Source: Escherichia coli (GTDB lineage Bacteria; Pseudomonadota; Gammaproteobacteria; Enterobacterales; Enterobacteriaceae). Taken from it: a DNA stretch of 64,000 nt. Within the stretch, counting starts at the first letter, position 1. Each line of letters starts with the position of its first letter. The position numbers and the translations under genes are program-made. Under the pieces are notes generated by a model, which was given only the letters and a program-made list of their open reading frames with translations, was not told where the DNA came from and did no database searches. Positions 2,300 through 39,873 of the stretch are shown here, piece by piece. Where the stretch lies: NCBI RefSeq assembly GCF_022846255.1, contig NZ_AP025682.1; one strand, given 5' to 3'.

Positions 2300-4762
2300 A
2301 TGAAAAACAGTAAGGCATTTTACCGCAGCGCATTAGCAACAGCTATTGTTATGGCTCTTTCTGCACCAGCATTCGCTGCTGATAAAGCGGTATCAACTGA
2401 TTCGGTTACGCTGAATAAAGATAAGACAACTCTGGATCAAGATGTTGTTATTAACGGTGATAACAAGATTACAGCCGTAACAATTGAAACGTCAGATTCA
2501 GATAAAGACCTTAATGTTACTTTTGGCGGTCACGATATTACCGCCGCATCAACGGTAAACCAAGGTTTCGTTGAAGGTGTAAAAGTTAGCGGTGACAAAA
2601 ATGTTGTGATTAATGCTACAGGCTCCACCATCACAGCTCAAGGTGAAGGCACCTATGTCCGGTCTGCAATGGTCATTTCTTCAACTGGCGATGTTGTTGT
2701 TAATGGCGGTAATTTCGTTGCAAAAAATGAAAAAGGTAGTGCGACAGGGATATCTCTGGAAGGGCCCCAGGGAAATAATGTCACGCTCAATGGCACAACC
2801 ATAAATGCTCAAGGCAATAAGAACTCCAGCAACGGCTCCAGGGCAATTTTTGCTCAAAAGGTTAGCGGATTGGATGGTTTTAACGGTGATGCAACAGACA
2901 ACATTACCCTTGCTGGCTCAAATATTATTAATGGTCGGATTGAAACAATACTTATTGCCAAGGAGAATAAGGGAACTCATACAGTCAACCTGAATATTAA
3001 GGATGGCTCAGTAATTGGGGCGGCTAATAATAAACAAACAATTTATGCCTCAGCTTCGGCACAAGGAACAGGTTCAGCAACGCAAAATTTAAATTTGTCT
3101 GTTGCTGATTCAGCCATCTACTCTGATATCAAGGCCCTTTCTGTAAGCAATAGTTCAGTCGGTACCACAACAAATGTAAACATGAACGTTGCCCGCTCTT
3201 ACTGGGAAGGTAATGCTTATGCTGATGCTTATGGCGATAAAGCGAGTAGTAATCTGAATATAAATCTTTCCGATGGCTCAGTCTGGAAAGGTAACGTAGG
3301 TAAAGGTCTGGATGGTAGTGCACGTGTCACACTGAAAAACTCCAGCTGGGATGGTGATGTCAACAACGCCAAAACTGCTGTTTTTCTGACGGATGGTTCT
3401 GTGTGGAATGGTGCTGTTTCCATTAACGCGCCAGTGGACCGCGCATCAGTACCAATGGGCTCGGTTCAACCAAATAAAAGCAGTGTATCTCTGCAAAACG
3501 GGTCTGTCTGGAATGTTACGGGAGCCTCAACTGTTGATGCTCTGGCAGTAAAAGACAGTACGGTTAATATCACGAAGGCTACAGTCAATACTGGCACGTT
3601 TGCTTCTCAAAACGGCACTCTGATTGTTGATGCCTCTTCTGAAAACACTCTGGATATCAGCGGAAAAGCGAGCGGTGACTTGCGTGTTTACAGTGCGGGT
3701 TCATTGGATCTTATCAATGAACAAACGGCATTTATTTCTACCGGCAAAGACAGCACTCTAAAAGCCACAGGCACAACGGAAGGTGGTCTGTATCAATATG
3801 ACCTGACACAGGGAGCTGATGGTAACTTTTATTTCGTAAAAAACACGCATAAAGCATCCAACGCCAGCTCCGTGATTCAGGCAATGGCAGCTGCTCCGGC
3901 TAACGTTGCTAATCTGCAGGCTGACACGCTCTCCGCCCGTCAGGATGCTGTCCGTCTGAGCGAAAATGACAAGGGCGGCGTATGGATTCAGTACTTTGGC
4001 GGTAAACAGAAACATACCACCGCGGGAAATGCATCCTATGACCTGGATGTAAATGGTGTAATGCTGGGTGGTGATACCCGCTTCATAACTGAAGATGGTA
4101 GCTGGCTGGCCGGTGTGGCGATGTCTTCTGCGAAAGGTGACATGACTACCATGCAGAGCAAAGGTGACACTGAAGGTTACAGCTTCCACGCTTACCTGAG
4201 CCGCCAGTATAACAACGGTATCTTCATTGATACTGCTGCACAGTTTGGTCACTACAGCAACACGGCAGATGTTCGCCTGATGAATGGTGGCGGTACCTTT
4301 AAAGCTGACTTTAACACCAATGGTTTCGGTGCGATGGTTAAAGGTGGTTACACCTGGGAAGACGGTAATGGCCTGTTTATTCAGCCATATGCCAAACTGT
4401 CTGCTCTGACGCTGGAAGGTGTGGATTATCAGCTCAACGGCGTGGACGTTCATTCTGACAGCTATAACTCTGTGCTGGGTGAGGCCGGTACGCGCGTGGG
4501 TTATGACTTCGCTGTGGGCAACTCGACCGTTAAACCTTATCTGAATCTGGCCGCACTGAACGAATTCTCTGATGGCAACAAAGTCCGTCTGGGTGATGAG
4601 TCTGTCAATGCCAGCATTGACGGTGCAGCATTCCGCGTGGGTGCAGGTGTACAGGCTGATATCACCAAAAACATGGGAGCATATGCTAGCCTTGACTACA
4701 CCAAAGGTGACGACATTGAGAACCCGCTACAGGGTGTAGTTGGTATCAATGTGACCTGGTAA
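2300..4762 (+). CDS. Autotransporter (type Va) adhesin, pertactin/AIDA-like passenger plus C-terminal beta-barrel
   Basis: Signal peptide MKNSKAFYRSALATAIVMALSAPAFA; passenger repeats (NGTTINAQG, DGSVWKGNV, DGSVWNGAV, NGSVWNVTG); C-terminal translocator ending ...GVVGINVTW. Track ORF starts at TTG 2267; ATG 2300 has GGAG SD. Confidence 0.85.
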   Translation: MKNSKAFYRSALATAIVMALSAPAFAADKAVSTDSVTLNKDKTTLDQDVVINGDNKITAVTIETSDSDKDLNVTFGGHDITAASTVNQGFVEGVKVSGDKNVVINATGSTITAQGEGTYVRSAMVISSTGDVVVNGGNFVAKNEKGSATGISLEGPQGNNVTLNGTTINAQGNKNSSNGSRAIFAQKVSGLDGFNGDATDNITLAGSNIINGRIETILIAKENKGTHTVNLNIKDGSVIGAANNKQTIYASASAQGTGSATQNLNLSVADSAIYSDIKALSVSNSSVGTTTNVNMNVARSYWEGNAYADAYGDKASSNLNINLSDGSVWKGNVGKGLDGSARVTLKNSSWDGDVNNAKTAVFLTDGSVWNGAVSINAPVDRASVPMGSVQPNKSSVSLQNGSVWNVTGASTVDALAVKDSTVNITKATVNTGTFASQNGTLIVDASSENTLDISGKASGDLRVYSAGSLDLINEQTAFISTGKDSTLKATGTTEGGLYQYDLTQGADGNFYFVKNTHKASNASSVIQAMAAAPANVANLQADTLSARQDAVRLSENDKGGVWIQYFGGKQKHTTAGNASYDLDVNGVMLGGDTRFITEDGSWLAGVAMSSAKGDMTTMQSKGDTEGYSFHAYLSRQYNNGIFIDTAAQFGHYSNTADVRLMNGGGTFKADFNTNGFGAMVKGGYTWEDGNGLFIQPYAKLSALTLEGVDYQLNGVDVHSDSYNSVLGEAGTRVGYDFAVGNSTVKPYLNLAALNEFSDGNKVRLGDESVNASIDGAAFRVGAGVQADITKNMGAYASLDYTKGDDIENPLQGVVGINVTW

Positions 4763-5685: not shown

Positions 5686-5708
5686 CAGGAATGGATTCCT
5701 GTCTTTTT
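5686..5708 (+). terminator. Intrinsic terminator after ykgH
   Basis: CAGGAAT-GG-ATTCCTG hairpin followed by TCTTTTT. Confidence 0.5.
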
Positions 5709-5857
5709 AACTGTAAATATCCTGGCATTATTAATGTCAGGATATTTACAGAAGAGCAGCATAACCATGACGGAACGGGGTTAAGTCAGGTTGTCCTTAA
5801 CGTTATTCACAACCTCGTATACCGCCTTCAGGTTTATGTCCAGACTACATATCTCTC

Positions 5858-6553
5858 TCAGCAATCCTCAATAATCAGATACACCGCTTTCACCGGACCA
5901 TGAACCCCGACGACTTTGATAAGCTCAATGTCCGCCGTTGAACTGGGACCACTGATGATGTTAATACATGACGGCATTCGTTCACCGGCCTGCGCTTTCT
6001 GATGCAATTTTTCTGCGAGTTGCGCTACACGCGGCAGGATTGTGCTTTTACGCAGGATAAAAAGAGAAGATTCCGGGAGCAGGCTCAATGAACGCCCGCG
6101 CCCGGCGGCGGAAAAAAGAACCACGCCTCCCGATTCGGTTAAACCATATTCAGCATATACGACGCCCACTTTAGCCTGCTCTGCTTGTGATATGTTCTCA
6201 ATACCTTTCGCCGGATCCCAAACAACGGCATTGCATTCCTGCTGCAAACGTTCGCTAATCCCCAATTCCTCCAGCCTCGTGTCACCACTAATCACGACCG
6301 ACTGATCTCCCAGCTCTTTACACAGACGTATTGCAGCTTCTGCCGCCTTCGCCTCGCTGGTCAGTTCACAGCGCGTCAACATAACATCGCTGGCAAACTG
6401 GATAAACGCGTCACAGCGCTGCTGTTGGGTAAGTTGGGTAAGCCGCTCGTTAGCATAGTTGTTAAGCGGCGCATCTTCTGCTTGCGGTTCAAGTCGCAGC
6501 GGGCGACCCAGTGCCTGAGCAACGTTATTCAAAAATTCGCTCCGATTATCCAT
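5858..6553 (-). CDS. ykgG: LutC-like protein YkgG (LUD domain)
   Basis: 231 aa from internal ATG (MDNRSEFLNNVAQALG...) with AGGAG SD; start overlaps ykgF stop (ATGGATAA). Confidence 0.8.
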   Translation of the reverse strand: MDNRSEFLNNVAQALGRPLRLEPQAEDAPLNNYANERLTQLTQQQRCDAFIQFASDVMLTRCELTSEAKAAEAAIRLCKELGDQSVVISGDTRLEELGISERLQQECNAVVWDPAKGIENISQAEQAKVGVVYAEYGLTESGGVVLFSAAGRGRSLSLLPESSLFILRKSTILPRVAQLAEKLHQKAQAGERMPSCINIISGPSSTADIELIKVVGVHGPVKAVYLIIEDC

Positions 6554-7973
6554 TCTTTTTCTCCTGCGCCTGATGTTTCTTAAACCAACTACGGAAACTC
6601 TCTCCGTCAGCTTCAGGAAGATCGCGTGCTTCCATCCAGTCGCTAATCGCGCCAAATTTGAGTGGTGTTTTGCCGCCATTGATAAACCAGCTTGCCGCAT
6701 GAGCACCAGCCATCATCCCAACTTTCCACAATCCTGGATGACTATTGGCATAAGCGAACATTTTTATCGCCCGTTGCTCTGCTTTTGCGGTGATCCCTTT
6801 TTCAGCCATCACCCGACGATGACGCAAAATCAGTTTTGACAGCGGAATACGCACCGGACACACGCTGTCACAAGCGGTGCATAAAGAGCAGGCGTAGGGT
6901 AAATCTTTAAAATCTTTATAGCCGCCAAGTAACGGGGAAATCACCGCACCAATTGGCCCTGGATAAATAGAGCCATATCCATGACCGCCAATATGGCGAT
7001 ATGCCGGACAAGTATTCATACAAGCCCCGCAGCGAATACAGCGCAGCACATCCCGAAATTCAGAGGCCAGCACCTCAGAACGCCCGTTATCGACAATAAC
7101 CAGATGAAACTCTTCAGGACCATCAACGTGCCCCGCTTCGCGCGGTCCTGTCAGCCAGGTGTTGTATCCCGTCAAACGTGCACCAACGGCACTGCGCGCC
7201 AGCATGGTGATCAATACATCTACCTCTGCAAACGTGGGGGCAATACGCTCCATTCCCATCACTGCAATATGCGTTTTAGGCAGCGTGGTACACATTCGCG
7301 CATTACCTTCATTGGTCACCAGGCATACCGAACCGGTCTCTGCCACCGCGAAATTACAGCCGGTAATACCTATTTCAGCACTGAGGAAATCTTCGCGGAT
7401 TTTTTGCCGAATGAATAAGGTCATCGCTTCAGGCGTTTCCGGCCCCTCATAGCCCAGACGTTCGTGTAGCACTCGACGGATCTGATGGCGATCTTTATGA
7501 ATTGCCGGGACCACAACATGAGAGGGCGGATCTTGATCCAGCTGGAGAATGTATTCACCCAGATCGGTTTCAATCACCTGAATGCCAGCATCCTGCAACA
7601 CATGATTGACACCAATCTCTTCGGTCACCATCGATTTAGATTTCACCACCTTCCGGGCATTTTTGCGTTGGGCAACCTGTAAAATGTAGCGGGTAGCGTC
7701 TTCTTTGGTTTTTGCAAAATAGACGTGACCGCCGTTTTGCGTCACTTTTTCTGAGAGCTGGTACAGATAAGCGTCGAGATTACTCAGAACATGATCACGT
7801 ATCTGGGCGGCCCGATCGCGCCACTCCTCCCAGTGCCCCAATTCATCGACCATTTTTTGCCGATTTGCCCCAATACGCTGCTGCGCGTTTGCCACCGCTT
7901 TGCGCATGATCGGATCTTCAATTTGCTGACGGATGCGTGTCTTAAAATCTGTATTACTGGTTTTGATCGACAT
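6546..7973 (-). CDS. ykgF: LutB-like iron-sulfur oxidoreductase YkgF
   Basis: 475 aa; two 4Fe-4S ferredoxin Cys clusters (CIRCGACMNTCP, CSLCTACDSVCP). Confidence 0.85.
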   Translation of the reverse strand: MSIKTSNTDFKTRIRQQIEDPIMRKAVANAQQRIGANRQKMVDELGHWEEWRDRAAQIRDHVLSNLDAYLYQLSEKVTQNGGHVYFAKTKEDATRYILQVAQRKNARKVVKSKSMVTEEIGVNHVLQDAGIQVIETDLGEYILQLDQDPPSHVVVPAIHKDRHQIRRVLHERLGYEGPETPEAMTLFIRQKIREDFLSAEIGITGCNFAVAETGSVCLVTNEGNARMCTTLPKTHIAVMGMERIAPTFAEVDVLITMLARSAVGARLTGYNTWLTGPREAGHVDGPEEFHLVIVDNGRSEVLASEFRDVLRCIRCGACMNTCPAYRHIGGHGYGSIYPGPIGAVISPLLGGYKDFKDLPYACSLCTACDSVCPVRIPLSKLILRHRRVMAEKGITAKAEQRAIKMFAYANSHPGLWKVGMMAGAHAASWFINGGKTPLKFGAISDWMEARDLPEADGESFRSWFKKHQAQEKKNG

Positions 7974-8703: not shown

Positions 8704-9231
8704 AACTAATACTCCATTACTTCATGCCCATTTATGCCCGATGGTTCCCCCCTTCCGGGGGATCAATCATCAATAAATATGGCGTTCTTTTTTAATTGGC
8801 TAGCAACATACCACCCCTCATTTGTATGACAAATGATAATCTTTCATCTAAACTTCAAATGCAATAACTAATTTTATTTCTTTCGGCATCGCTCACATTT
8901 TATAGGGAAATCGACGATCATTTTTGGCATAAGAAATCCATTTAAAAAGGCTACATCCCTTATACCTATTCAGTGCTACTTATTCAGGGGTTATTGAGAT
9001 ATACACTGATGGTGTACAAACAAAATCACCAACAATAATTACGTATCAAGTAATAGTCGGCATTTTATTTAATTAAAGCAATTTAGTTTGCGTTTTTATT
9101 TAAAAACTGAGCTAGAGTCCATCAAAAAAAAATATATAAAGCCCAAAACCACCGTTGGAAATAGAAATAGTTGAAAGGCTCACAACTCCCGGAATGCGGA
9201 TTATCTTTACCCTGATTTCTGGCGGTTTTAT

Positions 9232-10086
9232 TCAGGGTGCAAGCTGTCTGACCCTTTCCCGATATTCTCCCGGAGTACAACCAAACTCGCGGACAAACGC
9301 CTTGTGAAAAGATGATTCACTGGCATAGCCTACTGACTCAGCGATCACCACAACAGGGAGCATTTCCCGGGAAAACATCTGGGCCGCTATTTGTAGACGC
9401 AACTTTGTTAATACAGCCAGCGGCGTGGTTCCGGAAACATCACGGAAAAGCTGGGCAAAACTTGCCCGGGACATGTGGGCGATGCTGGCCAGCGATTCGA
9501 CGGTCCAGGCGTGTCCTGGCATTTCCAGCATTTGCTGTATTACCGCACCAAGACGTGGATGCAGAAGCAAACTGAGAATGTTTTTCTCTGTATTAACCTG
9601 TGCAATCCACTCACGCACCGCGAGGGTAAAGAATGTAGCGCAGATCTGGCTACACAGAGCATCCACTCCCGGCATTGCCGATCTGGATTCCTGTTGTAAA
9701 AACGGGATCGCCTCCCTCAGCCAGTTATATTCCACGCTATGGTTCACTGGTGCTACAAACAGCGTTTCCGGCAAAGATGTTAAAAAATAACGCGCCGAAT
9801 GTTGCAGCCGAAGAGTGCCACAGACAATACAGGTCGATTCATTATCGACATGACTCAGGCGATGAGCTGAATTTTGTGGTAGCAGGACCACATTTCCCGG
9901 GCGTAATCTAAAAATCTCCCCCGTCGGCATTTCCAGCTTCGCCGCTCCTTGCGTTAACGCATGCCAACGAATAACCGACAATTCCCCGGCACCATGTGGA
10001 AGTTGCCAGTCACTTCCTAACACGCAATTCTTATCGATCGTTCCTTGTGGAGCGTTAAGCATCAACAAACGGCTAAGGGCATCCAT
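9232..10086 (-). CDS. rclR: AraC-family regulator RclR (reactive chlorine response)
   Basis: 284 aa from MDALSRLLMLNAPQG with AGGAG SD; C-terminal AraC HTH; divergent from rclA. Confidence 0.85.
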   Translation of the reverse strand: MDALSRLLMLNAPQGTIDKNCVLGSDWQLPHGAGELSVIRWHALTQGAAKLEMPTGEIFRLRPGNVVLLPQNSAHRLSHVDNESTCIVCGTLRLQHSARYFLTSLPETLFVAPVNHSVEYNWLREAIPFLQQESRSAMPGVDALCSQICATFFTLAVREWIAQVNTEKNILSLLLHPRLGAVIQQMLEMPGHAWTVESLASIAHMSRASFAQLFRDVSGTTPLAVLTKLRLQIAAQMFSREMLPVVVIAESVGYASESSFHKAFVREFGCTPGEYRERVRQLAP

Positions 10087-10312
10087 ATCAGACTCCTGAG
10101 TGGTTTTTTGATTACAAACACCAACAATCTTAGCCAATAATTAATCTAATACCATCAAATAGTTAATCATGATTTTTGTTTTGTGATTCTGATTAAGAAA
10201 AAGAAAATACCAGACGATAAGACAAAATATCAAGCGTTGTGAAGAAATGTTATTTGCTCTTTTGCGTCTATAGTCATGATGTCAAATGAACGCGTTTCGA
10301 CAGGAAATCATC

Positions 10313-11638
10313 ATGAATAAATATCAGGCAGTTATTATTGGTTTTGGCAAGGCTGGAAAAACATTAGCCGTCACGCTGGCAAAAGCAGGTTGGCGTGTGG
10401 CTCTCATCGAACAATCAAATGCAATGTATGGCGGGACCTGTATTAATATCGGCTGTATCCCAACCAAAACATTGGTTCATGACGCACAGCAGCACACAGA
10501 TTTTGTCCGTGCCATACAGCGTAAAAATGAAGTGGTTAATTTTTTACGTAATAAGAATTTTCATAATCTTGCGGATATGCCCAATATCGACGTGATCGAC
10601 GGCCAGGCGGAGTTTATCAATAATCATAGCCTGCGTGTTCATCGGCCTGGGGGAAATCTGGAGATTCATGGCGAGAAAATTTTTATTAATACCGGTGCAC
10701 AAGCCGTGGTTCCGCCAATTCCTGGAATTACCACCACGCCTGGTGTATATGACAGCACCGGATTACTTAATCTAAAAGAATTGCCTGGGCATTTAGGTAT
10801 TTTGGGCGGCGGATATATTGGCGTTGAGTTCGCCTCTATGTTCGCTAATTTTGGCAGCAAAGTAACCATTTTAGAGGCAGCTTCGCTGTTTTTGCCTCGG
10901 GAAGATCGGGATATTGCTGATAATATCGCGACGATTTTACGCGATCAGGGCGTCGATATAATCCTCAATGCCCATGTGGAGCGAATCAGTCACCATGAAA
11001 ATCAAGTGCAAGTGCATAGCGAGCACGCCCAACTGGCGGTGGATGCACTGTTAATAGCTTCCGGTCGTCAACCGGCTACCGCTTCGTTACATCCAGAAAA
11101 TGCAGGTATCGCAGTAAACGAGCGCGGGGCAATTGTCGTTGACAAGCAATTACATACCACCGCAAACAATATTTGGGCGATGGGAGATGTTACCGGCGGG
11201 CTGCAATTTACTTACATTTCACTGGATGATTACCGCATTGTGCGTGATGAGTTGCTGGGAGAAGGCAGACGTAGTACTGATGATCGGAAAAATGTGCCTT
11301 ATTCCGTATTCATGACACCGCCACTGTCCAGGGTTGGTATGACAGAAGAACAGGCCAGAGAGAGTGGTGCTGATATTCAGGTGGTGACATTGCCTGTAGC
11401 TGCAATTCCGCGTGCCAGAGTGATGAATGATACTCGTGGGGTATTAAAAGCGATTGTTGATAATAAAACCCAACGTATATTAGGGGCATCACTGCTGTGT
11501 GTTGACTCCCACGAGATGATCAATATAGTGAAAATGGTGATGGATGCCGGGCTGCCTTATAGCATATTACGCGATCAGATATTTACTCATCCGTCGATGA
11601 GCGAATCACTCAATGATCTATTTTCATTAGTCAAATAA
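10313..11638 (+). CDS. rclA: Pyridine nucleotide-disulfide oxidoreductase RclA
   Basis: 441 aa; FAD motif GFGKAGK and redox-active CINIGCIPTK. Confidence 0.85.
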   Translation: MNKYQAVIIGFGKAGKTLAVTLAKAGWRVALIEQSNAMYGGTCINIGCIPTKTLVHDAQQHTDFVRAIQRKNEVVNFLRNKNFHNLADMPNIDVIDGQAEFINNHSLRVHRPGGNLEIHGEKIFINTGAQAVVPPIPGITTTPGVYDSTGLLNLKELPGHLGILGGGYIGVEFASMFANFGSKVTILEAASLFLPREDRDIADNIATILRDQGVDIILNAHVERISHHENQVQVHSEHAQLAVDALLIASGRQPATASLHPENAGIAVNERGAIVVDKQLHTTANNIWAMGDVTGGLQFTYISLDDYRIVRDELLGEGRRSTDDRKNVPYSVFMTPPLSRVGMTEEQARESGADIQVVTLPVAAIPRARVMNDTRGVLKAIVDNKTQRILGASLLCVDSHEMINIVKMVMDAGLPYSILRDQIFTHPSMSESLNDLFSLVK

Positions 11639-11746
11639 ACTCAAAATCAGACGCCAGAACAAATATTCTGGCGTCTCAGAGAAAAGAATCTTATTAATTC
11701 CCTGTTACTTTATAACTTCTTAATCACTTCATTGATGGTATTTTAT

Positions 11747-11983
11747 ATGTTTAAAAAATCTGTTTTATTTGCAACACTATTATCTGGCGTTATGGCATTT
11801 TCCACCAATGCAGATGATAAAATAATTCTGAAACATATCAGCGTCTCATCAGTATCAGCATCACCGACAGTTCTTGAGAATGCCATTGCTGATATGGCCA
11901 GAAAATATAATGCTTCATCCTGGAAAGTTACATCGATGCGAATTGATAATAATTCAACCGCAACAGCAGTATTGTATAAATAA
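11747..11983 (+). CDS. rclB: Small periplasmic protein RclB
   Basis: 78 aa with signal peptide MFKKSVLFATLLSGVMAFSTNA (track ORF extends upstream to TTG 11732). Confidence 0.7.
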   Translation: MFKKSVLFATLLSGVMAFSTNADDKIILKHISVSSVSASPTVLENAIADMARKYNASSWKVTSMRIDNNSTATAVLYK

Positions 11984-11994
11984 GGATGTTTACA

Positions 11995-12588
11995 ATGGAA
12001 AGATACCTGCACCTGTTAAGTCGGGGAGATAAAATTGGCCTGACATTGATTCGTCTGAGTATTGCGATTGTTTTTATGTGGATTGGGTTATTAAAGTTTG
12101 TCCCTTACGAGGCAGACAGCATTACACCATTCGTCGCAAACAGTCCACTAATGTCGTTCTTTTATGAACACCCGGAAGACTATAAACAGCATCTGACTCA
12201 CGAAGGCGAATACAAACCAGAAGCAAGAGCATGGCAAACGGCTAATAATACCTATGGTTTTTCCAACGGTCTTGGCGTCGTGGAGGTGATTATTGCTCTG
12301 CTGGTTTTGGCTAATCCTGTCAATCGCTGGTTAGGTTTATTGGGTGGGCTGATGGCATTTACCACGCCGCTGGTAACACTCTCATTTTTAATCACCACCC
12401 CGGAGGCATGGGTACCCGCATTGGGTGACGCTCATCATGGTTTCCCTTATTTATCCGGTGCTGGTCGTCTGGTATTGAAAGATACTCTGATGCTGGCAGG
12501 TGCTGTCATGATAATGGCAGATTCGGCGCGGGATATTCTTAAACAACGCAGTAATGAATCCAGTTCAACGTTAAAAACTGAATATTGA
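11995..12588 (+). CDS. rclC: Inner-membrane protein RclC
   Basis: 197 aa from MERYLHLLSRGDK; AAGGA SD 8 nt upstream; multiple TM segments. Confidence 0.8.
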   Translation: MERYLHLLSRGDKIGLTLIRLSIAIVFMWIGLLKFVPYEADSITPFVANSPLMSFFYEHPEDYKQHLTHEGEYKPEARAWQTANNTYGFSNGLGVVEVIIALLVLANPVNRWLGLLGGLMAFTTPLVTLSFLITTPEAWVPALGDAHHGFPYLSGAGRLVLKDTLMLAGAVMIMADSARDILKQRSNESSSTLKTEY

Positions 12589-12747
12589 TAATCCGAACAC
12601 TGTCTGTTGTTCACTTTTTCAGGCGTCAGGCCCCCTTTCTGTTGATGAAGCCTGACGCCATATTACCGGAGATATGACAGAGTGAAGATCAATATCACTC
12701 CCCTGTTAAAAAATTTTTGTCGTCTCAGGTAAAATAAGTGATTAATA

Positions 12748-13632
12748 TCAATCATGTATTTTTACAGCAAGACAACCACGAACAAACTCAGGATTAAAAT
12801 GTTTTACCGATTCCCCAACATAACCTAAATCTAGCGAACTAATTTGCGCCATTTCTTTCTCTGTCAGTGAGAAATCCCAGATAGCAAAATTTTCTTCGAT
12901 ACGCTGTTGATGTGTTGATTTCGGAATAACGACCACTCCCCGTTGAATATTCCAACGCAGAATGACCTGAGAAATCGATTTTTGATGGGCATCTGCAATA
13001 CTCTGAAGCAGATTATTTTCAAAGGGTTTATGTCGTCCACCACCTAACGGAGCCCATGCTTCAGGCTGCACGTTATAATACTTCATGGTTGCCAGCGCCT
13101 CTGGTTGGGCAAAATAGGGATGCAACTCGACCTGGTTGACCATCGGTTTAACTCTTACCGTTTCACAAAAGTTCGCCAGAACATGAGGGTAGAAATTGGA
13201 AACCCCAATCGCTTTTAATTTGCCCTCTTCATAGGCATCTTCGAGTGCACGCCACGCACTAAAATAATCGCGCATGGCCTGGTGCAATAAATAGAGATCG
13301 AAGTATTCTAGCCCCGATTTTTTTAATGATGCTTCAATACCTGCTGCTGCAATATCCTGATTCAACATATCCTGCACCCACAATTTAGACGTTATAAATA
13401 ACTCTTCTCGGGTACATAAACCTTCAGATATGGCTTCACGAACGGCTTCACCGACGGCATCTTCATTACCGTATACCGCTGCAGTGTCGATGAGTCGATA
13501 ACCCGTGCGGATAGCATTCAACACTGACTGTTTGCACACGTCTTTATCGGTAACCTGAAAAACACCAAATCCCATCATCGGCATTTTCAGATTGTTACTT
13601 AATACGGAAAATTCCACTGTCAGTCCCTCCAT
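12748..13632 (-). CDS. Aldo-keto reductase (intact counterpart of the K-12 ykgQ fragment by position)
   Basis: AKR family (PMMGFGVFQ..., LIDTAAVYGNE, ...IPKS...); start uncertain (ATG 13632, or GTG/ATG a few codons in). Confidence 0.75.
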   Translation of the reverse strand: MEGLTVEFSVLSNNLKMPMMGFGVFQVTDKDVCKQSVLNAIRTGYRLIDTAAVYGNEDAVGEAVREAISEGLCTREELFITSKLWVQDMLNQDIAAAGIEASLKKSGLEYFDLYLLHQAMRDYFSAWRALEDAYEEGKLKAIGVSNFYPHVLANFCETVRVKPMVNQVELHPYFAQPEALATMKYYNVQPEAWAPLGGGRHKPFENNLLQSIADAHQKSISQVILRWNIQRGVVVIPKSTHQQRIEENFAIWDFSLTEKEMAQISSLDLGYVGESVKHFNPEFVRGCLAVKIHD

Positions 13633-13864
13633 TAGGTATGAACAATGAGTCTACGTTAAAACGTAACCTCAAATTAGTATGTGGATTTTGATATCACTTA
13701 TGCAAAAAATTCATTAATAATGTAGGACTGAAACCTCTCTATTTTTGGGGCAATGAAGCAGACGCTATCAGTGCTTTTGCCTTGGGACTTGCTGTTTTTG
13801 ATACACTTAGGGCCCAGGACATAACGAAAATGTGCGATATGACAAAGAATTAACGGAGTATGTG

Positions 13865-14722
13865 ATGATCAGGCAGAAGATTCTACAGCAGCTCCTGGAG
13901 TGGATTGAGTGCAATCTTGAGCACCCTATTTCAATCGAAGATATCGCACAGAAATCTGGCTACAGCAGACGCAACATCCAGCTTCTGTTCCGAAATTTCA
14001 TGCATGTGCCTTTGGGAGAATACATTCGCAAACGAAGGCTTTGTCGTGCCGCCATTCTTGTCCGGCTCTCCGCGAAATCTATGCTTGATATTGCACTCTC
14101 TTTGCATTTTGATTCACAGCAGTCATTCAGCCGCGAATTTAAAAAGTTATTCGGCTGCTCTCCCCGTGAATACCGCCACCGTGATTATTGGGATCTCGCA
14201 AATATCTTCCCTTCTTTTTTAATACGTCAACAGCAAAAGACGGAGTGTAGATTAGTCAACTTTCCTGAGACACCTATTTTTGGCAATTCATTTAAATATG
14301 ATATTGAAGTGTCGAATAAATTACCGGATGAAGAAGTCAAACTGCGACGTCATCATTTAGTCAGATGTATGAAGAATTTTAAGACGGATATCTATTTCGT
14401 CTCCACGTTCGAACCATCAACAAAATCGGTCGATTTGCTCACAGTTGAAACTTTTGCCGGTACGGTATGCAAACAAACCGATTCAGAGATGCCGAAAGAG
14501 TGGACAATTAACCGAGGACTGTATGCCTCTTTCCGCTATGAAGGTGAGTGGGAGCACTACCCTGAATGGGCGCGAAACCTCTATCTGATGGAATTACCTG
14601 CCAGGGGGTTAGCCAGAGTGAACGGCAGTGATATTGAGCGATTTTATTACAATGAAAACTTCGTCGAAATTGATAGCAATAACATTGTTTGCGAAATTTT
14701 TATCCCCGTTCGCCCGGTTTAG
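13865..14722 (+). CDS. ykgA: AraC/Rob-like regulator: N-terminal AraC HTH plus C-terminal GyrI-like domain
   Basis: 285 aa from MIRQKILQQLLEWIECNLEHPISIEDIAQKSGYSRRNIQLLFRNF... (Rob/SoxS-like); GGAG SD. Confidence 0.7.
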   Translation: MIRQKILQQLLEWIECNLEHPISIEDIAQKSGYSRRNIQLLFRNFMHVPLGEYIRKRRLCRAAILVRLSAKSMLDIALSLHFDSQQSFSREFKKLFGCSPREYRHRDYWDLANIFPSFLIRQQQKTECRLVNFPETPIFGNSFKYDIEVSNKLPDEEVKLRRHHLVRCMKNFKTDIYFVSTFEPSTKSVDLLTVETFAGTVCKQTDSEMPKEWTINRGLYASFRYEGEWEHYPEWARNLYLMELPARGLARVNGSDIERFYYNENFVEIDSNNIVCEIFIPVRPV

Positions 14723-14846
14723 CCTGTAACTCCATCACATAAGATTTACCCTACCCTGCCACCGTCTAATCGGTACCAGGGTAGGTATTCAGTAAATAAT
14801 GGCGCTGCGCATGTCAACGCCATTATTATTTATTACATCGTCGTTT

Positions 14847-17800
14847 TTATTTCTCCTCAGCGCCTTCAGTATCTGCAGGAACGGCGTTAATTGTCACAGT
14901 CACTGGTTTCATTTCATACCCTCCATATGTCAAAGAGTTGAATGTGAATGTGTATGTACCTGGCTTGTTGGTACTAAATGTACGCGTGATTTTCCCGCTC
15001 GCGAAATGGTCATTTTTCGACGGCAGGAACTGATAATCCGCCTCTGTCACCCCTTCCGGAGCCTCAATGTCGACCCACATGGTTCCTCCTACGGGGTTGA
15101 CACCCGACATCAGAGTAACCGTCAGTGTTGCAGTAGTCTTCCCGTCCGCCACCAGAGAATCTACACGCTCTGGAGATGCAGCGAGCACCGCGTTTTTATC
15201 ATCCGCGACGAATTTAGATTCGGCAGTTTTCGTCGATTCCTGACCGTCGGCCTGTTCCACTTTCGCCGTGAGTGTATATGTCGCTGCGACAGTGGTCGTG
15301 GCGGTGAAAATAGCCTGCCCTTGCTCATTCGTTGTCGCCGTCCCATTGGGAGTCAGAACTAAATTTTCCGGGCTGGCAGTCAGCGTCACTTCGCTATCTT
15401 TCAGCAGGTTGTTATTGGCATCAGTCACCGTAACTTTATACGTCTGTTTGGTTTTGCCGTCCGCCACTGCACGGTTGCCAATCACCTCAATACTGGAGAT
15501 GGTCGCCGTAGTCTTATCAGCCACAAACGTTACAGACTGCGCATTCGAAGGCTGGTCATTTCCTGCTGACGCCGTGATCTCATAGGTTCCGGCAGTCACG
15601 GAAACCACTTTCAGTTCCGCTTTACCCTCCTTGTCGGCGTTCACCATGATATTACCGTCTGCAAGCGGTTTGACGCCCCGAGGCAGATTAAAGACGACCA
15701 CAGCGCCAGGAAGAAGGTTGCCGTATTGATCCTTAACCGTTGCCGTCAGCGTAAAGGCATCTTTGCCGTTTGCCACTTTTTGAGCAGCGGCGTCTACCTC
15801 CAGGCTCGCCTGACCGGTACTGAAATCCGCCTTGAATTTCACCTTGACCGTCTTCTGAGAGTTTTTCACCGAGGCCTCGATCTCAAGTTCCCCTGCAACC
15901 GTTGACATAAGCTCAATGTCCACTTTCCCTGCCGCATTGGTTGTTACTGTATTCCCCGTCTTGCTGGTCACACCCTGCGGTAAAGTCAGCGTAACTTCTT
16001 GCCCCTGCAACGGGTTACCATAGCTGTCCACGACGGTCAGGGTTATCTGGTTAGCAGACTGTCCATTAGCCAGTTGGTTATTAACCTTCACTGTCATATC
16101 ACGAATCTCAGCCTTAGATGCGTCACCTGCAACATTCAGCACCAGTGGCTGAGCAACGGCATTTTGGCCGTTCACTCGCGGCATCACAGACAACTGACCC
16201 GCGGCAGATCCCAGCGTTAAGGTCGACACGTAGACCCCATTACCTTTCTCTGTCCAGTTTCCTGCTGAAGGACGCTCACTCCCCGTGCTGGCGGCACCAC
16301 TAAACACTGGTGCATCTGGCTTCAGCCCGGTGACCGGATTCCCGTACGCATCCTTCACGGTGAAGGTGAGTTCCGTCGTCGTTTTAACCGTTGGAGTTTT
16401 ATTGTCCGCAACAAGCGTAGAGTTCGCTGATGACATCTCTCCGGCAATAACAGTCAGCTGCGCGGCTTCGGTGGCTGCAGGCTGGCCGTTGAAGAGCGGC
16501 ATGACACGAAGCTCGCCCGTCTTTCCGCCTGTAGTTAACGTAGCAACATAGGAACCGTCACCTTTTTCGGTCCAACTGGAAACGGTCGCCCCTTCAGAGG
16601 CGGTCCCCGTCAAACTTGCCGACAACGAAAGACCACTGATAGCGTTGCCATGCGCATCTTTCGCCACCAGCGTTACGGTTGTGCTTTCACCGGCTTTTAC
16701 GTGATCTTCTGCGACAGAGACTTTCGACTGGTTTGAAGATAATGCATCAGCCACCACGGTTACTTTTGCCGCATTTGCTGCCGCGTCCTGCCCATTGAGC
16801 TTCGGCATAACGTCTAATTCACCCGCCGTAGTGCCGAGAGAAATCTGCGCAGTCCAGGTCCCGTCGCCATTATCCGTCCAGCCTGATGCCGTAGAACCAG
16901 CAGCAGCTGCGCCCGATAATGACGGTGCATCCGGATTGAGGCTGGTCACAGGGTTGTCATAGGCATCTTTTGCCGTCCAGATTGCCGTAACTGTACCGCC
17001 AACCACCGGTTTATCAGGATTCAGTGTGATGGACGAATGTGCTGCATCAAGCGGCCCGGCAACAAACTTCAGCGTTTGTTGTAACGTGCCCAGCTGATAC
17101 TGCTCGCTGAAGGCACGCACAACAACGTTCCCGGCACGGGTCGAAGAAACCGTGGCGCTGTAACCCCCTGGTTTTATTTCCGAAATGGCACCAACGGTTA
17201 CACCATTAGCGTCTTGCGGAACAAGTCGCAGGCGGCTGGCTTCTCCCGTCACCGGATTACCCTCGGAGTCCACCGCTGTCAGTGTCAGCGTGTAGGCTTG
17301 CTGACCATCAGCAACCACATCACCTGACGGCTCGTTAGCGCTCAGGGTGGAGTTTGCCACATCCATCATCGTGGCCCGCAGTTCTGCAGTGACAGTTTTG
17401 CTCATGTCATCAACGCTAACAGTAATCGTTGCCTCACCTGACTGCGTTCCGGTAGTAAAGACAGACTGATACACCCCTGCTTCAGTTTCGGTGAACTCAC
17501 CCAGTGTTGGCTTTGCCTGTGATTTAGTGGCCTTCAGGGTACGAGTCACAATATTTCCAGCCGGTTTGAAGGTTAGTTCAGTCTTGATCTGATCTTTCAT
17601 GCCCGTGACTGGCTGGCCCTCGGCGTCGCGCAGAGACAGCACCAGCGGCTTTTGCTCATTACCGTTAGCAAGCATTTGAATACGGCTCTGACCGTCAAGC
17701 GTTAACGCCGTACGATCGGCGCTCATACCAGCTCCGCTAATAACTACTTCTGTCTGCACACGTTTCGAGGCATTGCCTTTGTTATCGTAGGCAATCGCTG

Positions 17801-19097
17801 AAATCGCATAATAATTGTCTTTGCCTGCCTGATAAGCCGGGAGCGTCACTTGCCACTGGTTGCCCTGCCCCGTAATTTTTCCGCCTGCGGCCAGCAAAGA
17901 CGGCGCTTCCCATTGCACATTTTTCAGACCGTGAGTTGCTTTGCTGACCACAAGCCCCAGGGAAACCGTCTGGCCGCCCTTGCCTTCAATACGCTCAGGC
18001 AGAGCAATACGGATCACTTCAGATTTGCGATACTCAAGAACGATATTGTTATTACGCTCAACCAGGTCATAGCGGCTGCCTGCCAGCATTCGACGCTCGC
18101 GAATGCTGTCTGTATCGAGTTGTTTTTCCAGAGGTTCGCCAATCCGATAATTAACTTCCAGGCCAAAGCGAGTGTCATTCTCACCACTCTTGCCCTGCTT
18201 ATGCCCGGCACTCAGGGTCAGAAGAGGCACTGGCGTGTAATTCACTTCAGCGGTAATCGCATGTGGATCTTTCTGGCGTTTATCTTTACCAAACAGCCCG
18301 ACTTCATCGCCATAATACTGTTCATACATCAGGCTTGCGCCAAGCTGCGGCCAGGCGGGTAAATAGCCCTCAGCACGAATATCCCAGCCATTCGCCGGGC
18401 GTTCCTGATAATCCTCAACATCCGGCGATTTTTTCCAGCCAGAAGCCCGGATATAACCATTGGCGCTCAGTTTCAAATAATCACGCCAGTATTCCGCACC
18501 AACACCAATGCGGGTATGACTACGGGATAAATCATGATCGATAAAAGTATTCACCCCCGCCATCCAGTCATTTTCTGAAAAATGACGCCAGCCAAAACCA
18601 ATATTTGACTGAGTACGATCGTCGGTACGATGTATTGCCCCCTGAGTGAACAACATATTTGTCGGTGTATCATAAATCGGATAAAGCATTTCCAGCGAAG
18701 AGTCCTTCAGCGAGAAATTTTTATCGACATTCAGTTTGACGCGCGCAGTACCGTATTTCCCGAGCCACTCCTGAATTTCCTGGTTAGCTTTAGCGGTGGC
18801 CATTCCGGTAATAAAGTTACGTGTCGCATCGCTATCTGGCTGACTGCTTAAAAATGTCCCGGCATTAGCGGCAAGCGACGCGACATTTTTCTCCACGTTA
18901 TTATCAGCAGTTACCGTAGTATTTTCCATGCTCAACCGTGGCTGAACCGCATGCTGCGCACGTGCCGCCATTACTGGGGTAAAGGTGACAGCGAGTGGAA
19001 AAAGAACCTGAACAGAGATATTTGCCCACGCCACGCAGCGGGCCAGAACTGAATAACGAAATTGTGGTTGTTTATGACCTATTTTATAACGTGACAT
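14847..19097 (-). CDS. eaeH: Intimin/invasin-family outer-membrane adhesin EaeH/FdeC, full length (1416 aa)
   Basis: N-terminal signal plus inverse-autotransporter beta-barrel, then many tandem bacterial Ig-like domains; uninterrupted here. Confidence 0.85.
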   Translation of the reverse strand: MSRYKIGHKQPQFRYSVLARCVAWANISVQVLFPLAVTFTPVMAARAQHAVQPRLSMENTTVTADNNVEKNVASLAANAGTFLSSQPDSDATRNFITGMATAKANQEIQEWLGKYGTARVKLNVDKNFSLKDSSLEMLYPIYDTPTNMLFTQGAIHRTDDRTQSNIGFGWRHFSENDWMAGVNTFIDHDLSRSHTRIGVGAEYWRDYLKLSANGYIRASGWKKSPDVEDYQERPANGWDIRAEGYLPAWPQLGASLMYEQYYGDEVGLFGKDKRQKDPHAITAEVNYTPVPLLTLSAGHKQGKSGENDTRFGLEVNYRIGEPLEKQLDTDSIRERRMLAGSRYDLVERNNNIVLEYRKSEVIRIALPERIEGKGGQTVSLGLVVSKATHGLKNVQWEAPSLLAAGGKITGQGNQWQVTLPAYQAGKDNYYAISAIAYDNKGNASKRVQTEVVISGAGMSADRTALTLDGQSRIQMLANGNEQKPLVLSLRDAEGQPVTGMKDQIKTELTFKPAGNIVTRTLKATKSQAKPTLGEFTETEAGVYQSVFTTGTQSGEATITVSVDDMSKTVTAELRATMMDVANSTLSANEPSGDVVADGQQAYTLTLTAVDSEGNPVTGEASRLRLVPQDANGVTVGAISEIKPGGYSATVSSTRAGNVVVRAFSEQYQLGTLQQTLKFVAGPLDAAHSSITLNPDKPVVGGTVTAIWTAKDAYDNPVTSLNPDAPSLSGAAAAGSTASGWTDNGDGTWTAQISLGTTAGELDVMPKLNGQDAAANAAKVTVVADALSSNQSKVSVAEDHVKAGESTTVTLVAKDAHGNAISGLSLSASLTGTASEGATVSSWTEKGDGSYVATLTTGGKTGELRVMPLFNGQPAATEAAQLTVIAGEMSSANSTLVADNKTPTVKTTTELTFTVKDAYGNPVTGLKPDAPVFSGAASTGSERPSAGNWTEKGNGVYVSTLTLGSAAGQLSVMPRVNGQNAVAQPLVLNVAGDASKAEIRDMTVKVNNQLANGQSANQITLTVVDSYGNPLQGQEVTLTLPQGVTSKTGNTVTTNAAGKVDIELMSTVAGELEIEASVKNSQKTVKVKFKADFSTGQASLEVDAAAQKVANGKDAFTLTATVKDQYGNLLPGAVVVFNLPRGVKPLADGNIMVNADKEGKAELKVVSVTAGTYEITASAGNDQPSNAQSVTFVADKTTATISSIEVIGNRAVADGKTKQTYKVTVTDANNNLLKDSEVTLTASPENLVLTPNGTATTNEQGQAIFTATTTVAATYTLTAKVEQADGQESTKTAESKFVADDKNAVLAASPERVDSLVADGKTTATLTVTLMSGVNPVGGTMWVDIEAPEGVTEADYQFLPSKNDHFASGKITRTFSTNKPGTYTFTFNSLTYGGYEMKPVTVTINAVPADTEGAEEK

Positions 19098-19647
19098 TGA
19101 GATAATTTCCTGATGAACGAATTAACGAACATAGGCAGACACAAATAATGGCGTCTGCTTGTCAGAAAAACCGGGGATTTCCCGGTTTCCTTTTCCGCAG
19201 AAAAGGAAATACCTTTATGTAAGAAAGTACACCGCCACCTAATATATCCAGTGCCTGTAGCCACTCATCAGGTGGTTGGGCGCGGGATTATATTTTTATT
19301 TATGGGTGAAAATTTAGCTTTTTGTGCAAGTCATTAAATAGATACCTAAGTTATATTTCTTACTCTGCGGACAGTGAATAATTCATTATTCAGAGTGAAT
19401 AATAATGACCTGCCTTTAATTAGCAACTATTGGAAATACGTCGAAGTAGGTATATACGCCAGGATAAACCGATATATTTTTTATGGATATTCATTTTCCT
19501 TCATCAGACTGTGAATTGCAGGGATATCGAACTTGCACGACTCATCGCAACACTCAAACAGATTTATGAATTTCGTTCATAACCCCTGACAAATCCTGCC
19601 GTCTAATCGAGCTTTTCCCTTTACGTTATGCTTCTCATGAACGATAA

Positions 19648-22571
<2,924 letters not shown>

Positions 22572-37226: not shown

Positions 37227-37314
37227 ATAGATTCGATCCTGAACCCATCGGTCCCAAATCTGTCCCAATAAAAAATAAGGAAGGTATTAGTGATGTGTAA
37301 CTTATTGATTTAAA

Positions 37315-37390
37315 TGGTGCCGATAAGAGGAGTCGAACCTCCGACCTTCGCATTACGAATGCGCTGCTCTACCAACTGAGCTATATCGGC
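37315..37390 (-). tRNA. thrW: tRNA-Thr (anticodon CGU)
   Basis: 76-nt cloverleaf read on minus strand: acceptor GCCGATA/TATCGGC, D-arm GCTC-AGTTGGTA-GAGC, anticodon loop TTCGTAA, T-arm GGAGG-TTCGACT-CCTCT, encoded CCA. Confidence 0.95.
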
Positions 37391-37504
37391 CCTGAAAGGA
37401 CATGTTCACGAACGTGAATCACGGTGGACAAGGTTAAAACTAACCGGGCGATGCGTCAATGGCCTTGTGAATCAAATGGCTACTTTTGCATCACCCGGTT
37501 TTAT

Positions 37505-38758
37505 TTACGCACGAATGGTGTAATCACCAATGCCGATCCACTTGTAAGTGGTCAGTGCTTCCAGCCCCATTGGGCCACGCGCGTGGAGTTTTTGTGTGCT
37601 TACCGCCACTTCCGCACCCAGTCCAAACTGGCCGCCGTCGGTAAACCGCGTAGAGGCGTTAACGTAAACAGCGGACGAATCCACTTCGTTAACAAAACGC
37701 TGGGCGTTGCGCATATCGCGGGTCAGGATCGCATCGGAGTGTTGTGTGCCGTGTTCACGAATATGGGCGATGGCATCGTCAAGATCGCTGACGATTTTGA
37801 CGTTCAAATCTAATGACAGAAACTCATCGTCATACTCTTCCGCTTTAACAGCCACCACCTTCGCGGGGCCTGTCTGCAACTGCGCCAGCGCAGCTGCATC
37901 TGCGTGTAATGTCACGCCGCTTTCCGCCATTTGTTTGCTTAATGCGGGCAGGAAGCTATCGGCGATGTTTTTATTTACCAGCAACGTTTCTACCGTATTA
38001 CATGTGCTCGGACGCTGAGTTTTCGCGTTGACAATTACTTTCAGGGCTTCAGCGATCTCTGCACTTTCATCAACGTAAATATGGCATACGCCTATACCGC
38101 CTGTGATCACCGGGATTGTCGACTGTTCGCGGCACAGCTTATGCAGCCCAGCGCCACCACGCGGGATCAGCATGTCGATGTATTTATCCATACGCAGCAT
38201 TTCACTGACCAGCGCGCGGTCAGGATTATCAATCGCCTGCACGGCACCCGCCGGTAAGCCACAGGATTTCAGGGCGTCCTGAATCACCGCCACCGTTGCA
38301 GCGTTAGTGCGACAGGTTTCTTTGCCGCCGCGCAGGATCACCGCGTTACCCGTTTTCAGGCACAGCGAAGCGACATCAACCGTCACGTTCGGGCGAGCTT
38401 CATAAATCACGCCAATCACCCCCAGCGGCACGCGACGGCGCTCCAGACGCAGACCACTGTCCAGTACGCCGCCATCGATTACCTGCCCCACCGGATCGGC
38501 GAGATTGCACACCTGGCGCACATCGTCGGCAATGCCTTTCAGCCGTGCGGGCGTCAGTGCCAGACGGTCAAGCATCGCTTCGCTAAGGCCATTGGCACGC
38601 GCGTCTGCAACATCCTGCGCGTTAGCGTTGAGGATACTTTCGCTTTGTGCTTCCAGTTCATCGGCGATTTTTTCCAGCACACGATTTTTTTCGCGGCTGG
38701 AGAGTTGCGCTAATTTATACGAGGCTTGCTTCGCGGCAATGCCCATTTGTTCCAGCAT
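37505..38758 (-). CDS. proA: Gamma-glutamyl phosphate reductase
   Basis: 417 aa, [38 protein letters not shown]... Confidence 0.95.
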
Positions 38759-38769
38759 CGGCCAGCTCC

Positions 38770-39873
38770 TTAACGGGTAATCATGTCATCACGGTGAACG
38801 GCAACCGGGCCGTATTCATATCCCAGTATTGCATCAATTTCTTGCGAGTGGTGTCCGGCAATACGGCGTAATGCATCGCTGTTGTAACGACTGACGCCGT
38901 GGGCGATATCGCGACCTTCGAGGTTGCAAATACGGATGACTTCACCACGCGAGAAATTGCCAGTCACGCTTTTAATGCCTTTCGGCAACAGGGAGCTGCC
39001 GCGTTCAAGAATGGCGGCAGTTGCCCCTTCATCTACCGTGATTTCACCCGCTGGCGGCGCACCGAAAATCCAGCGTTTACGGTTTTCAAGCGGAGTTGCC
39101 TGGGCATGGAACAGCGTACCCACGGAAATGCCTTCCATCACATCACCAATAACGCCCGGCTTGCTGCCCGCGGCAATAATGGTGTCGATACCCGCACGGC
39201 AAGCCACGTCCGCGGCCTGCAATTTGGTACTCATGCCGCCAGTTCCGAGGCCTGAAACGCTATCACCGGCAATCGCGCGCAGTGCGTCATCAATGCCGTA
39301 CACATCTTTAATCAGTTCTGCCTGCGGATTGCTGCGCGGGTCAGCGGTATACAAACCTTTTTGATCGGTCAGCAGCAACAGTTTATCGGCACCCGCCAGA
39401 ATCGCCGCCAGCGCAGAAAGGTTATCGTTATCACCGACCTTAATCTCTGCCGTAGCGACAGCATCGTTCTCATTAATTACCGGAACGATATTGTTATCGA
39501 GCAACGCACGCAGGGTATCGCGGGCGTTCAGGAAGCGTTCACGATCTTCCATATCAGCACGGGTCAGCAACATCTGCCCGACATGAATGCCGTAAATTGA
39601 AAACAGCTGTTCCCACAGTTGAATCAGTCGACTCTGCCCTACCGCCGCCAGCAATTGTTTCGAGGCGATAGTCGCAGGTAGTTCCGGGTAACCCAGGTGC
39701 TCACGTCCGGCGGCAATCGCGCCCGACGTCACAATAACAATCCGATGCCCGGCGGCATGTAACTGCGCGCACTGGCGAACGAGTTCAACAATATGGGCAC
39801 GGTTCAGGCGGCGCGATCCGCCTGTTAGCACACTGGTGCCGAGTTTTACCACCAGCGTCTGGCTGTCACTCAT
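38770..39873 (-). CDS. proB: Glutamate 5-kinase
   Basis: 367 aa from [32 protein letters not shown]...; C-terminal PUA domain. Confidence 0.95.

Follow-up and report, generated by a model that had tools for sequence, protein, structure and literature searches.

Two kinds of AraC-type regulators described in Escherichia coli offer close comparisons for the locus considered here. YqhC is encoded divergently from the aldehyde reductase genes yqhD-dkgA, and MarA, SoxS and Rob bind the so-called marbox, the GCAC half of which is contacted by residues W42 and R46 in the MarA-DNA structure. We analysed a stretch of 64,000 nucleotides from E. coli (NCBI RefSeq assembly GCF_022846255.1, contig NZ_AP025682.1), in the following referred to as the window, in which an aldo-keto reductase (AKR) gene (12748..13617, minus strand) and ykgA, encoding a paralogue of Rob with 285 amino acids (13865..14722, plus strand), are located next to rcl, an operon for chlorine stress. 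Martin, Gillette and Rosner are said to have devoted a note to ykgA in 2000. Its product has been grouped with MarA, SoxS and Rob, its function and targets being reported as unknown (PMC2064960), and the gene was listed among the superoxide-stress genes upregulated in adherent-invasive E. coli on ethanolamine (PMC9220930). A preliminary description of the window had placed the AKR and YkgA, together with rcl and ykgEFG, in one contiguous redox/oxidant-stress neighbourhood. The synteny indicates instead that YkgA is half of a two-gene tail-to-tail cassette with the adhesin gene fdeC, recurring in Escherichia, Salmonella and other hosts.

In the window, ykgA and fdeC (also named eaeH; 14847..19097, minus strand), which encodes an inverse-autotransporter adhesin of 1416 amino acids, are separated tail to tail by 124 bp (14723..14846). 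Homologues of YkgA with 64-86% identity are arranged in the same manner with FdeC orthologues in all other cassettes, at a distance of 117-149 bp and with five different left flanks. Escherichia whittamii and Escherichia sp. E1V33 carry the ykg locus as in the window, with the AKR gene as left flank (YkgA 86%, FdeC 91% identity to the window proteins). The left flank consists of genes for type II secretion and for a metallophosphatase in "E. coli" E69 (82% and 68.5%), of hipA in Salmonella CP191473 (67% and 71%), of a DUF4440 gene at locus L012 (YkgA 65%, FdeC 81% / 60%) and of a PrpR-like gene at locus L028 (64%, with an FdeC that is cut short by the contig end and shows 47% identity in its aligned C-terminal portion). 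With the adjacency found across these five genomic contexts, we regard the linkage of ykgA and fdeC as very probably real, and outside this locus it is an adhesin of the FdeC type, rather than the AKR, that accompanies YkgA as its conserved partner. Beyond Escherichia, relatives of YkgA are rare; YkgA-like proteins of at most 47% identity from a Klebsiella sp., a Salmonella mobile element and Enterobacter were considered as members of the same orthologous group and rejected on account of their unrelated neighbours. FdeC is reportedly controlled by H-NS and temperature, going by the title of a study by Easton from 2014 (cited in PMC5595812). It has been described as a broadly conserved adhesin that elicits protection from infections of the urinary tract (Nesta et al., 2012), and EaeH/FdeC is reported to be upregulated when enterotoxigenic E. 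coli (ETEC) attaches to epithelial cells (PMC4810144).

The regulator itself is intact, and the Rob-like architecture proposed for it was borne out by domain and fold comparison. Two AraC-type helix-turn-helix (HTH) domains span approximately residues 1-110 and a GyrI-like domain residues 127-283 (Pfam HTH_18/HTH_AraC plus GyrI-like, E 2.2e-12), the start codon probably being the ATG at 13865, which yields the 285 amino acids, rather than the GTG at 13832. Rob is the top match by sequence (E 7e-38) as well as by fold, the AlphaFold2 model (predicted local distance difference test score 88.7) giving Foldseek template-modelling (TM) scores of 0.76-0.78 to the Rob structures 1d5y and 7vwy. YkgA shares with Rob the order of two N-terminal AraC-type HTH domains and a C-terminal GyrI-like domain as well as the conserved helix 6 (DSQQSFSREFKK, matching the motif DSQQ(T/S)(F/L)(T/S)R). 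However, full-length identity to Rob amounts to just 30-31%, the scores fall below both NCBIfam cut-offs for RobA orthology (191.7 against 380 and 168.8 against 426), and YkgA is narrowly spread, in Escherichia and sporadically elsewhere, and linked to an adhesin gene. Structural alignments give its HTH region an identity of 33-45% to MarA, RamA, Rob and SoxS, but in comparison to MarA, SoxS and RamA it carries an additional effector domain. The recognition helix 3 differs from all four: where MarA, SoxS, Rob and RamA read GYSKW(H/Y)LQR, YkgA reads GYSRRNIQL (SRRNIQL against SKWHLQR in Rob) and its family GYSRR(N/H/Y)I, with S-R-R invariant in 17 members. YkgA consequently lacks the S-K-W-(H/Y)-L-Q-R motif of the marbox binders with its shared tryptophan and arginine, and the alignment places R36 and L40 of YkgA opposite W42 and R46 of MarA. 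The third-best structural match, the albicidin-resistance regulator STM3175, combines an AraC HTH with a GyrI-like domain in the same way, but it is only 21% identical and its domain arrangement fails to superpose (TM 0.36-0.39). We take YgiV to be the E. coli counterpart of STM3175.

Alignments of the region upstream of fdeC show that the last 240 bp or so before the ATG are well conserved, while sequences beyond about 19340 cannot be aligned between cassettes. At the 5' edge of the conserved block lies a marbox, CTTGCACAAAAAGCTAAATT (19311..19330, minus strand), which reads toward fdeC 214-233 bp upstream of its start and agrees with AYnGCACnnWnnRYYAAAYn at 19 of 20 consensus positions and with GCAHWWWWTGYYAAA at 14 of 15 positions (15 of 15 in the Salmonella copy). 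It varies between cassettes only in its first base and, in Salmonella, additionally in one central base. The box is positioned 18 nt upstream of a predicted -10 element TATAAT (19287..19292, minus strand) shared by all loci examined; with a transcription start predicted from this -10 at approximately 7 nt past it, the box would be centred at about -40.5, and no -35 element is recognisable. We counted as class II a forward consensus marbox that overlaps the -35 position with its centre at about -36 to -55. The predicted fdeC layout resembles the class II promoters of MarA, SoxS and RamA, such as those of micF and lpxC, and would match the published geometry of a marbox reading toward the gene and a missing -35 (PMC10268841, PMC12052159). 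It also bears a close likeness to the GCAC-N5-GCTAAA pattern of MarA sites with high affinity (PMC5684230, Table 1). Our literature search found no paper linking eaeH or fdeC with a marbox; a genome-wide scan for MarA sites dropped boxes located more than 200 bp from the start codon (PMC10268841), a filter that would exclude the fdeC box. We place weight on this box because it is near-constant between cassettes, keeps a fixed spacing and stays by a marbox-family regulator. On the contig L016, which is rich in insertion sequences (IS), a YkgA homologue of 64% identity is convergent with a gene for an EAL-domain protein (cyclic di-GMP phosphodiesterase; 6016-6774) instead of fdeC, and approximately 300 bp upstream of the EAL gene the fdeC-type marbox (7074-7093), its spacing and the -10 core are kept, with a different leader.

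The explanation we favour is that the AKR and YkgA of the window are intact ancestral forms, that the regulator forms a cassette with fdeC and that YkgA activates fdeC, and we put the probability of this explanation as a whole at roughly 0.55. Mechanistically, the GyrI-like domain of YkgA would bind a small molecule, and the ligand-bound monomer would then activate the fdeC promoter in class II mode at the conserved marbox overlapping the -35 position, counteracting the silence in which fdeC is normally kept. That YkgA activates fdeC directly, taken by itself, has in our estimation a chance at or slightly under even. The more specific picture, in which YkgA would be a dedicated small-molecule-sensing activator of FdeC/EaeH and would travel with it, along with a structured leader and a promoter of the class II marbox type, as a compact cassette that shifted from one genomic context to another, is tentative and falls somewhat short of even odds. 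If YkgA is indeed a ligand-responsive activator of fdeC, a specific regulator could be named for FdeC, an orphan Mar/Sox/Rob paralogue would gain a function together with a simple experimental handle, and the cassette would explain the reported induction of fdeC on host-cell contact. The worthwhile outcome of the analysis is a testable lead, namely that YkgA may be the specific regulator of FdeC.

Several observations weigh against this explanation. The number of independent cassettes amounts to a handful, and a scan of metagenomes for promoters deviating from the E. coli type returned two loci only, both of the E69 type already seen. The marbox match taken alone is not significant, since four such matches occur in the window against 1.6 expected. 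The YkgA family is without equivalents of MarA W42 and R46 in helix 3, while the GCAC that these residues contact in MarA is unchanged in the fdeC box, so YkgA may read a different site or may read the fdeC box differently, and the box may in reality serve MarA, SoxS or Rob, which are present in the hosts. Furthermore, ykgA and fdeC are convergent and have no common promoter. Both the binding and activation of fdeC by YkgA and the position of the fdeC start are inferred or predicted from sequence.

The possibility that MarA, SoxS or Rob act at the fdeC marbox, with YkgA regulating something else or only itself, gains from the likeness of the box to high-affinity MarA sites and from a helix 3 in YkgA that is unlike that of the known marbox binders. 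We nevertheless consider it unlikely, since the box and the -10 core stay by a YkgA homologue even with another gene downstream, as at L016. We assume that eaeH lies between 184 kb and 429 kb in ETEC strain H10407. Chromatin immunoprecipitation sequencing of MarA in this strain lists no peak from 184 kb to 429 kb, a result that likewise speaks against use by MarA within the caution of its authors that occluded sites are missed (PMC5684230). YkgA could alternatively act as a fourth, redundant activator of the Mar/Sox/Rob type on ordinary marboxes throughout the genome, adding to the resistance to multiple drugs and to oxidative stress, its linkage to fdeC being incidental. The similarity of its HTH region to MarA, RamA, Rob and SoxS, the conserved helix 6, its published grouping with MarA, SoxS and Rob and its upregulation as a superoxide-stress gene would fit such a role. 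We judge it quite improbable, however, as the whole family carries other residues at the helix 3 positions aligned to W42 and R46, the protein scores well under the equivalog cut-offs for Rob, SoxS and MarA, and a cassette with fdeC in five contexts is hard to call coincidence.

The third alternative builds on the neighbourhood of the preliminary description. In this model an electrophile or oxidant would be sensed by YkgA, which would then induce the divergent AKR gene, as YqhC does with yqhD-dkgA, and so extend the rcl/ykgEFG neighbourhood. As in the YqhC system, the gene for an aldo-keto reductase or aldehyde reductase stands divergent to one for an AraC-family regulator, and the shared spacer of 247 bp is conserved across Escherichia species; the GyrI-like effector domain, the resemblance of the AKR to YvgN, YtbE and E. 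coli DkgA, and the clustering of oxidoreductase genes at the locus are in line with this model as well. In contrast to the YqhC system, the pairing is restricted to Escherichia, many strains have lost the AKR and kept the regulator, and no common binding site could be identified. AKR orthologues with 80-86% identity occur in Klebsiella, Enterobacter, Kluyvera, S. salamae and Vibrio, and the three of these loci that were examined (Klebsiella, S. salamae and Vibrio) have unrelated neighbours and no YkgA. Despite the unrelated neighbours, the AKR orthologues of E. coli, Klebsiella and S. salamae share an upstream element, ATTAATGAA(T)TTTTTGCATAA..ATCA; in the window it is represented by ATTATTAATGAATTTTTTGCATAAGTGATATCAAAA in AKR sense (13686..13721, minus strand). 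As the AKR orthologues elsewhere share the element without YkgA, the AKR gene carries a regulatory signal of its own. Conversely, among the YkgA loci found outside Escherichia, none has an adjoining AKR. Approximately 39% of the E. coli genomes (about 2100) have lost the AKR and kept the regulator intact and constrained, as exemplified by strains 1283 and C2, in which the AKR is gone and both ykgA and fdeC are intact. The ratio of nonsynonymous to synonymous substitution rates (dN/dS) of ykgA is 0.10-0.24 in every pairwise comparison; against outgroups it is 0.096-0.135 in AKR-deleted and 0.12-0.155 in AKR-intact strains, so that dN/dS revealed no relaxed selection in the AKR-deleted strains. 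With ykgA constrained in these strains, the regulator evidently serves a purpose even where the AKR is missing. Together with a spacer in which no marbox with up to two mismatches occurs and with the rcl genes missing at this site in two sister species (see below), these observations make the sensor-target model improbable. YkgA and the AKR would thus not be an obligate pair, and if YkgA exerts any control over the AKR, this would play a secondary part and be confined to Escherichia.

The search for marboxes with up to two mismatches was also negative upstream of ykgA in the other cassettes, no common motif was found upstream of ykgA outside Escherichia, and scans for sigma-70 promoters and terminators gave nothing above chance in the spacers. 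Besides the AKR-associated element, which is located at about 3800-3850 in locus L024 and about 3900-3950 in locus L019, the AKR-ykgA spacer contains an imperfect inverted repeat with the core ACGTTAAAACGT (13646..13671), 30-55 bp upstream of the AKR start and conserved in other Escherichia species. A further conserved element, TTTTGATACACTTA (13796..13809, plus strand), lies in the ykgA core promoter region and includes the extended -10-like TGaTAcAcT; the complement of its K-12 allele, which differs by one base, is listed beside the mapped transcription start site of ykgA (PMC12052159, supplementary table). A direct repeat, TTGATA(T)CACTTA, with two copies in this spacer and none elsewhere in the window, was considered as a YkgA box and rejected, because the first copy is part of the AKR-associated element in genera without YkgA, the second overlaps the ykgA core promoter as judged from the mapped start site, and neither copy occurs upstream of fdeC. 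In E. whittamii and E1V33 (L006 and L007, about 5700-5900) the spacer has an insert of approximately 170 bp with a sequence resembling repetitive extragenic palindromic elements, GCCTGATGCGCTA...

The proposal that the AKR and YkgA form a functional unit with rcl was not supported by comparison with other Escherichia species. In E. whittamii and E1V33, no rclRABC is found between ykgE and the AKR gene, and the order ykgE-AKR-ykgA-fdeC-AKR2 is retained, with protein identities to the window of 98% for ykgE, 93% for the AKR, 86% for ykgA, 91% for fdeC and 98% for AKR2. About 3.85 kb of the window (8902-12753, rclR-rclABC) are replaced there by about 308 bp (L007, 4435-4742); gain of the rcl block in E. 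coli and its loss in E. whittamii and E1V33 both fit this difference. Because rclRABC is missing at the site in these two species, the adjacency of rcl is lineage-specific, and nothing in the sequence points to co-regulation. The AKR gene and rclC are convergent and belong to separate transcription units. Their spacer contains a perfect inverted repeat of 10 bp, GGCGTCAGGC / GCCTGACGCC (12622..12659), which was read from the sequence and may separate the two units; the terminator scan gave it no score. A literature search found no paper covering hypochlorous acid, strain CFT073 and the AKR together.

The AKR gene encodes 289 amino acids and represents, in intact form, what is the pseudogene ykgQ in K-12. 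Its reading frame is unbroken, it matches nearly the complete barrel profile of the Pfam family Aldo_ket_red (PF00248; E 4.9e-43, profile positions 10-289 of 291), and the catalytic tetrad D44/Y49/K78/H112 is present and aligned with the tetrad motifs of 1vp5, in agreement with the earlier statement that the gene is full-length. Translation probably starts at the GTG at 13617, because this codon is preceded by a GGAGG Shine-Dalgarno sequence and agrees with the RefSeq models and with orthologues of 289 amino acids; the ATG at 13632 given previously, 15 nt longer, is less likely. In fold and tetrad the protein is similar to DkgA and DkgB of E. coli, YvgN and YtbE of Bacillus subtilis and TM1009 (1vp5), the sequence matches being strongest to 1vp5 (E 2e-84), followed by YtbE (3e-73), YvgN (1e-67) and DkgA (3e-58), but it scores below the NCBIfam equivalog cut-offs of both DkgA (233.9 against 425) and DkgB (163.5 against 327). 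YvgN and YtbE of B. subtilis are glyoxal/methylglyoxal reductases. By family knowledge, the AKR would be a DkgA/YvgN-like NAD(P)H-dependent carbonyl reductase, widespread in Gammaproteobacteria, equipped with a conserved upstream element of its own and dispensable in E. coli.

K-12 was correctly said to hold only degraded copies of both genes, and the comparison did not show them to be equally intact there. Its ykgQ is annotated as an AKR remnant of 129 bp, and when the K-12-type allele is aligned to the window, about 687 of the 870 bp are seen to be missing by two internal deletions. The first removed 100 bp (12877..12976) between 9-bp direct repeats, TGAGAAATC, located at 12868-12876 and 12968-12976; the second comprises about 587 bp (13013..13600), its junction being approximate. 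Of K-12 ykgA, an annotated pseudogene, about 220 codons remain before the frame runs into IS3A, which also truncates eaeH/fdeC, so that both genes were cut by one IS3-associated deletion. The degraded state is no artefact of the laboratory. Among 5426 complete E. coli genomes, the AKR is present at 80% length or more in 2933, and a further 2117 have only a partial match, which in an evenly spaced sample of matches was nearly always one and the same 20% remnant. The regulator is present at 80% length or more in 4637 of these genomes, truncation by IS3 being a far rarer, K-12-type event. The intact AKR and ykgA are the common, ancestral state and not peculiar to this strain, and it is K-12 and its relatives that have decayed. 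The ykgA allele of strain 1283 (L003, 4179-5030), which encodes 283 amino acids and is common in AKR-deleted strains, is unusually far removed from the window allele (dS 0.16) and is nearer in dN to other Escherichia species (0.039 versus 0.070), suggesting that the allele is old or recombinant.

The gene order in the window is ykgGFE, rclR, rclABC, AKR (minus), ykgA (plus) and fdeC (minus), with rclRABC and ykgEFG at the positions previously assigned to them. Past fdeC follow two further AKR genes, two LysR genes, a hydrolase gene and a gene for an NADH-dependent flavin oxidoreductase, and then ykgR and ykgMO. Of the contiguous redox or oxidant-stress neighbourhood that had been proposed, the abundance of oxidoreductase genes holds true, and extends to the two AKRs and the flavin oxidoreductase beyond fdeC; the functional unit with rcl is not supported by the comparison. 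The region is most similar to the B2-type strains SK1144 and ATCC 25922. The fdeC locus has been described as containing up to three putative regulators and up to five putative reductases or hydrolases and as being disrupted in K-12 (Nesta et al., 2012). Because of this description and the annotation of ykgA and ykgQ as pseudogenes, the observation of an intact AKR and YkgA is true but already known, and the layout had been published earlier. As first framed the finding is ordinary, showing K-12 to be a decayed reference for this locus, and it cautions against inferring function from adjacency to redox genes in one strain.

The predicted fdeC leader comprises about 183 nt (19098..19280, minus strand) and contains three hairpins conserved in the alignment (19186-19209; 19171-19185, followed by a T run; 19135-19158). 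Cassettes with proteins that differ by about 30% are still 81-92% identical in the 118 nt adjoining the ATG. Conservation is thus higher in the leader than in the coding sequence, each of the three hairpins has at least one compensatory change, and the hairpin CCGGGAAATCCCCGG with the subsequent T run resembles an intrinsic terminator. The leader might act as an attenuator or a thermosensor or give rise to a short RNA; a search of 12500-19800 against Rfam returned no match.

The gene block beyond fdeC, from 19663 to about 26000, consists of the two AKRs, the two LysR regulators, the hydrolase, which is of the alpha/beta type, and the NADH-dependent flavin oxidoreductase, none of which is found in K-12, where ykgP may be a remnant. 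The first AKR past fdeC is truncated in the O157 strain SS17. Further along the window, at about 37300-38840, yagU leads straight to tRNA-Thr and proA, whereas SK1144 carries between them an island of about 25 kb with type I restriction-modification, Zorya and integrase genes that is not in the window. In strain ECCTRSRTH03 (L029), an IS5 element abuts a truncated rclC, and the segment from the AKR, ykgA and fdeC through to the lateral-flagella remnant is deleted.

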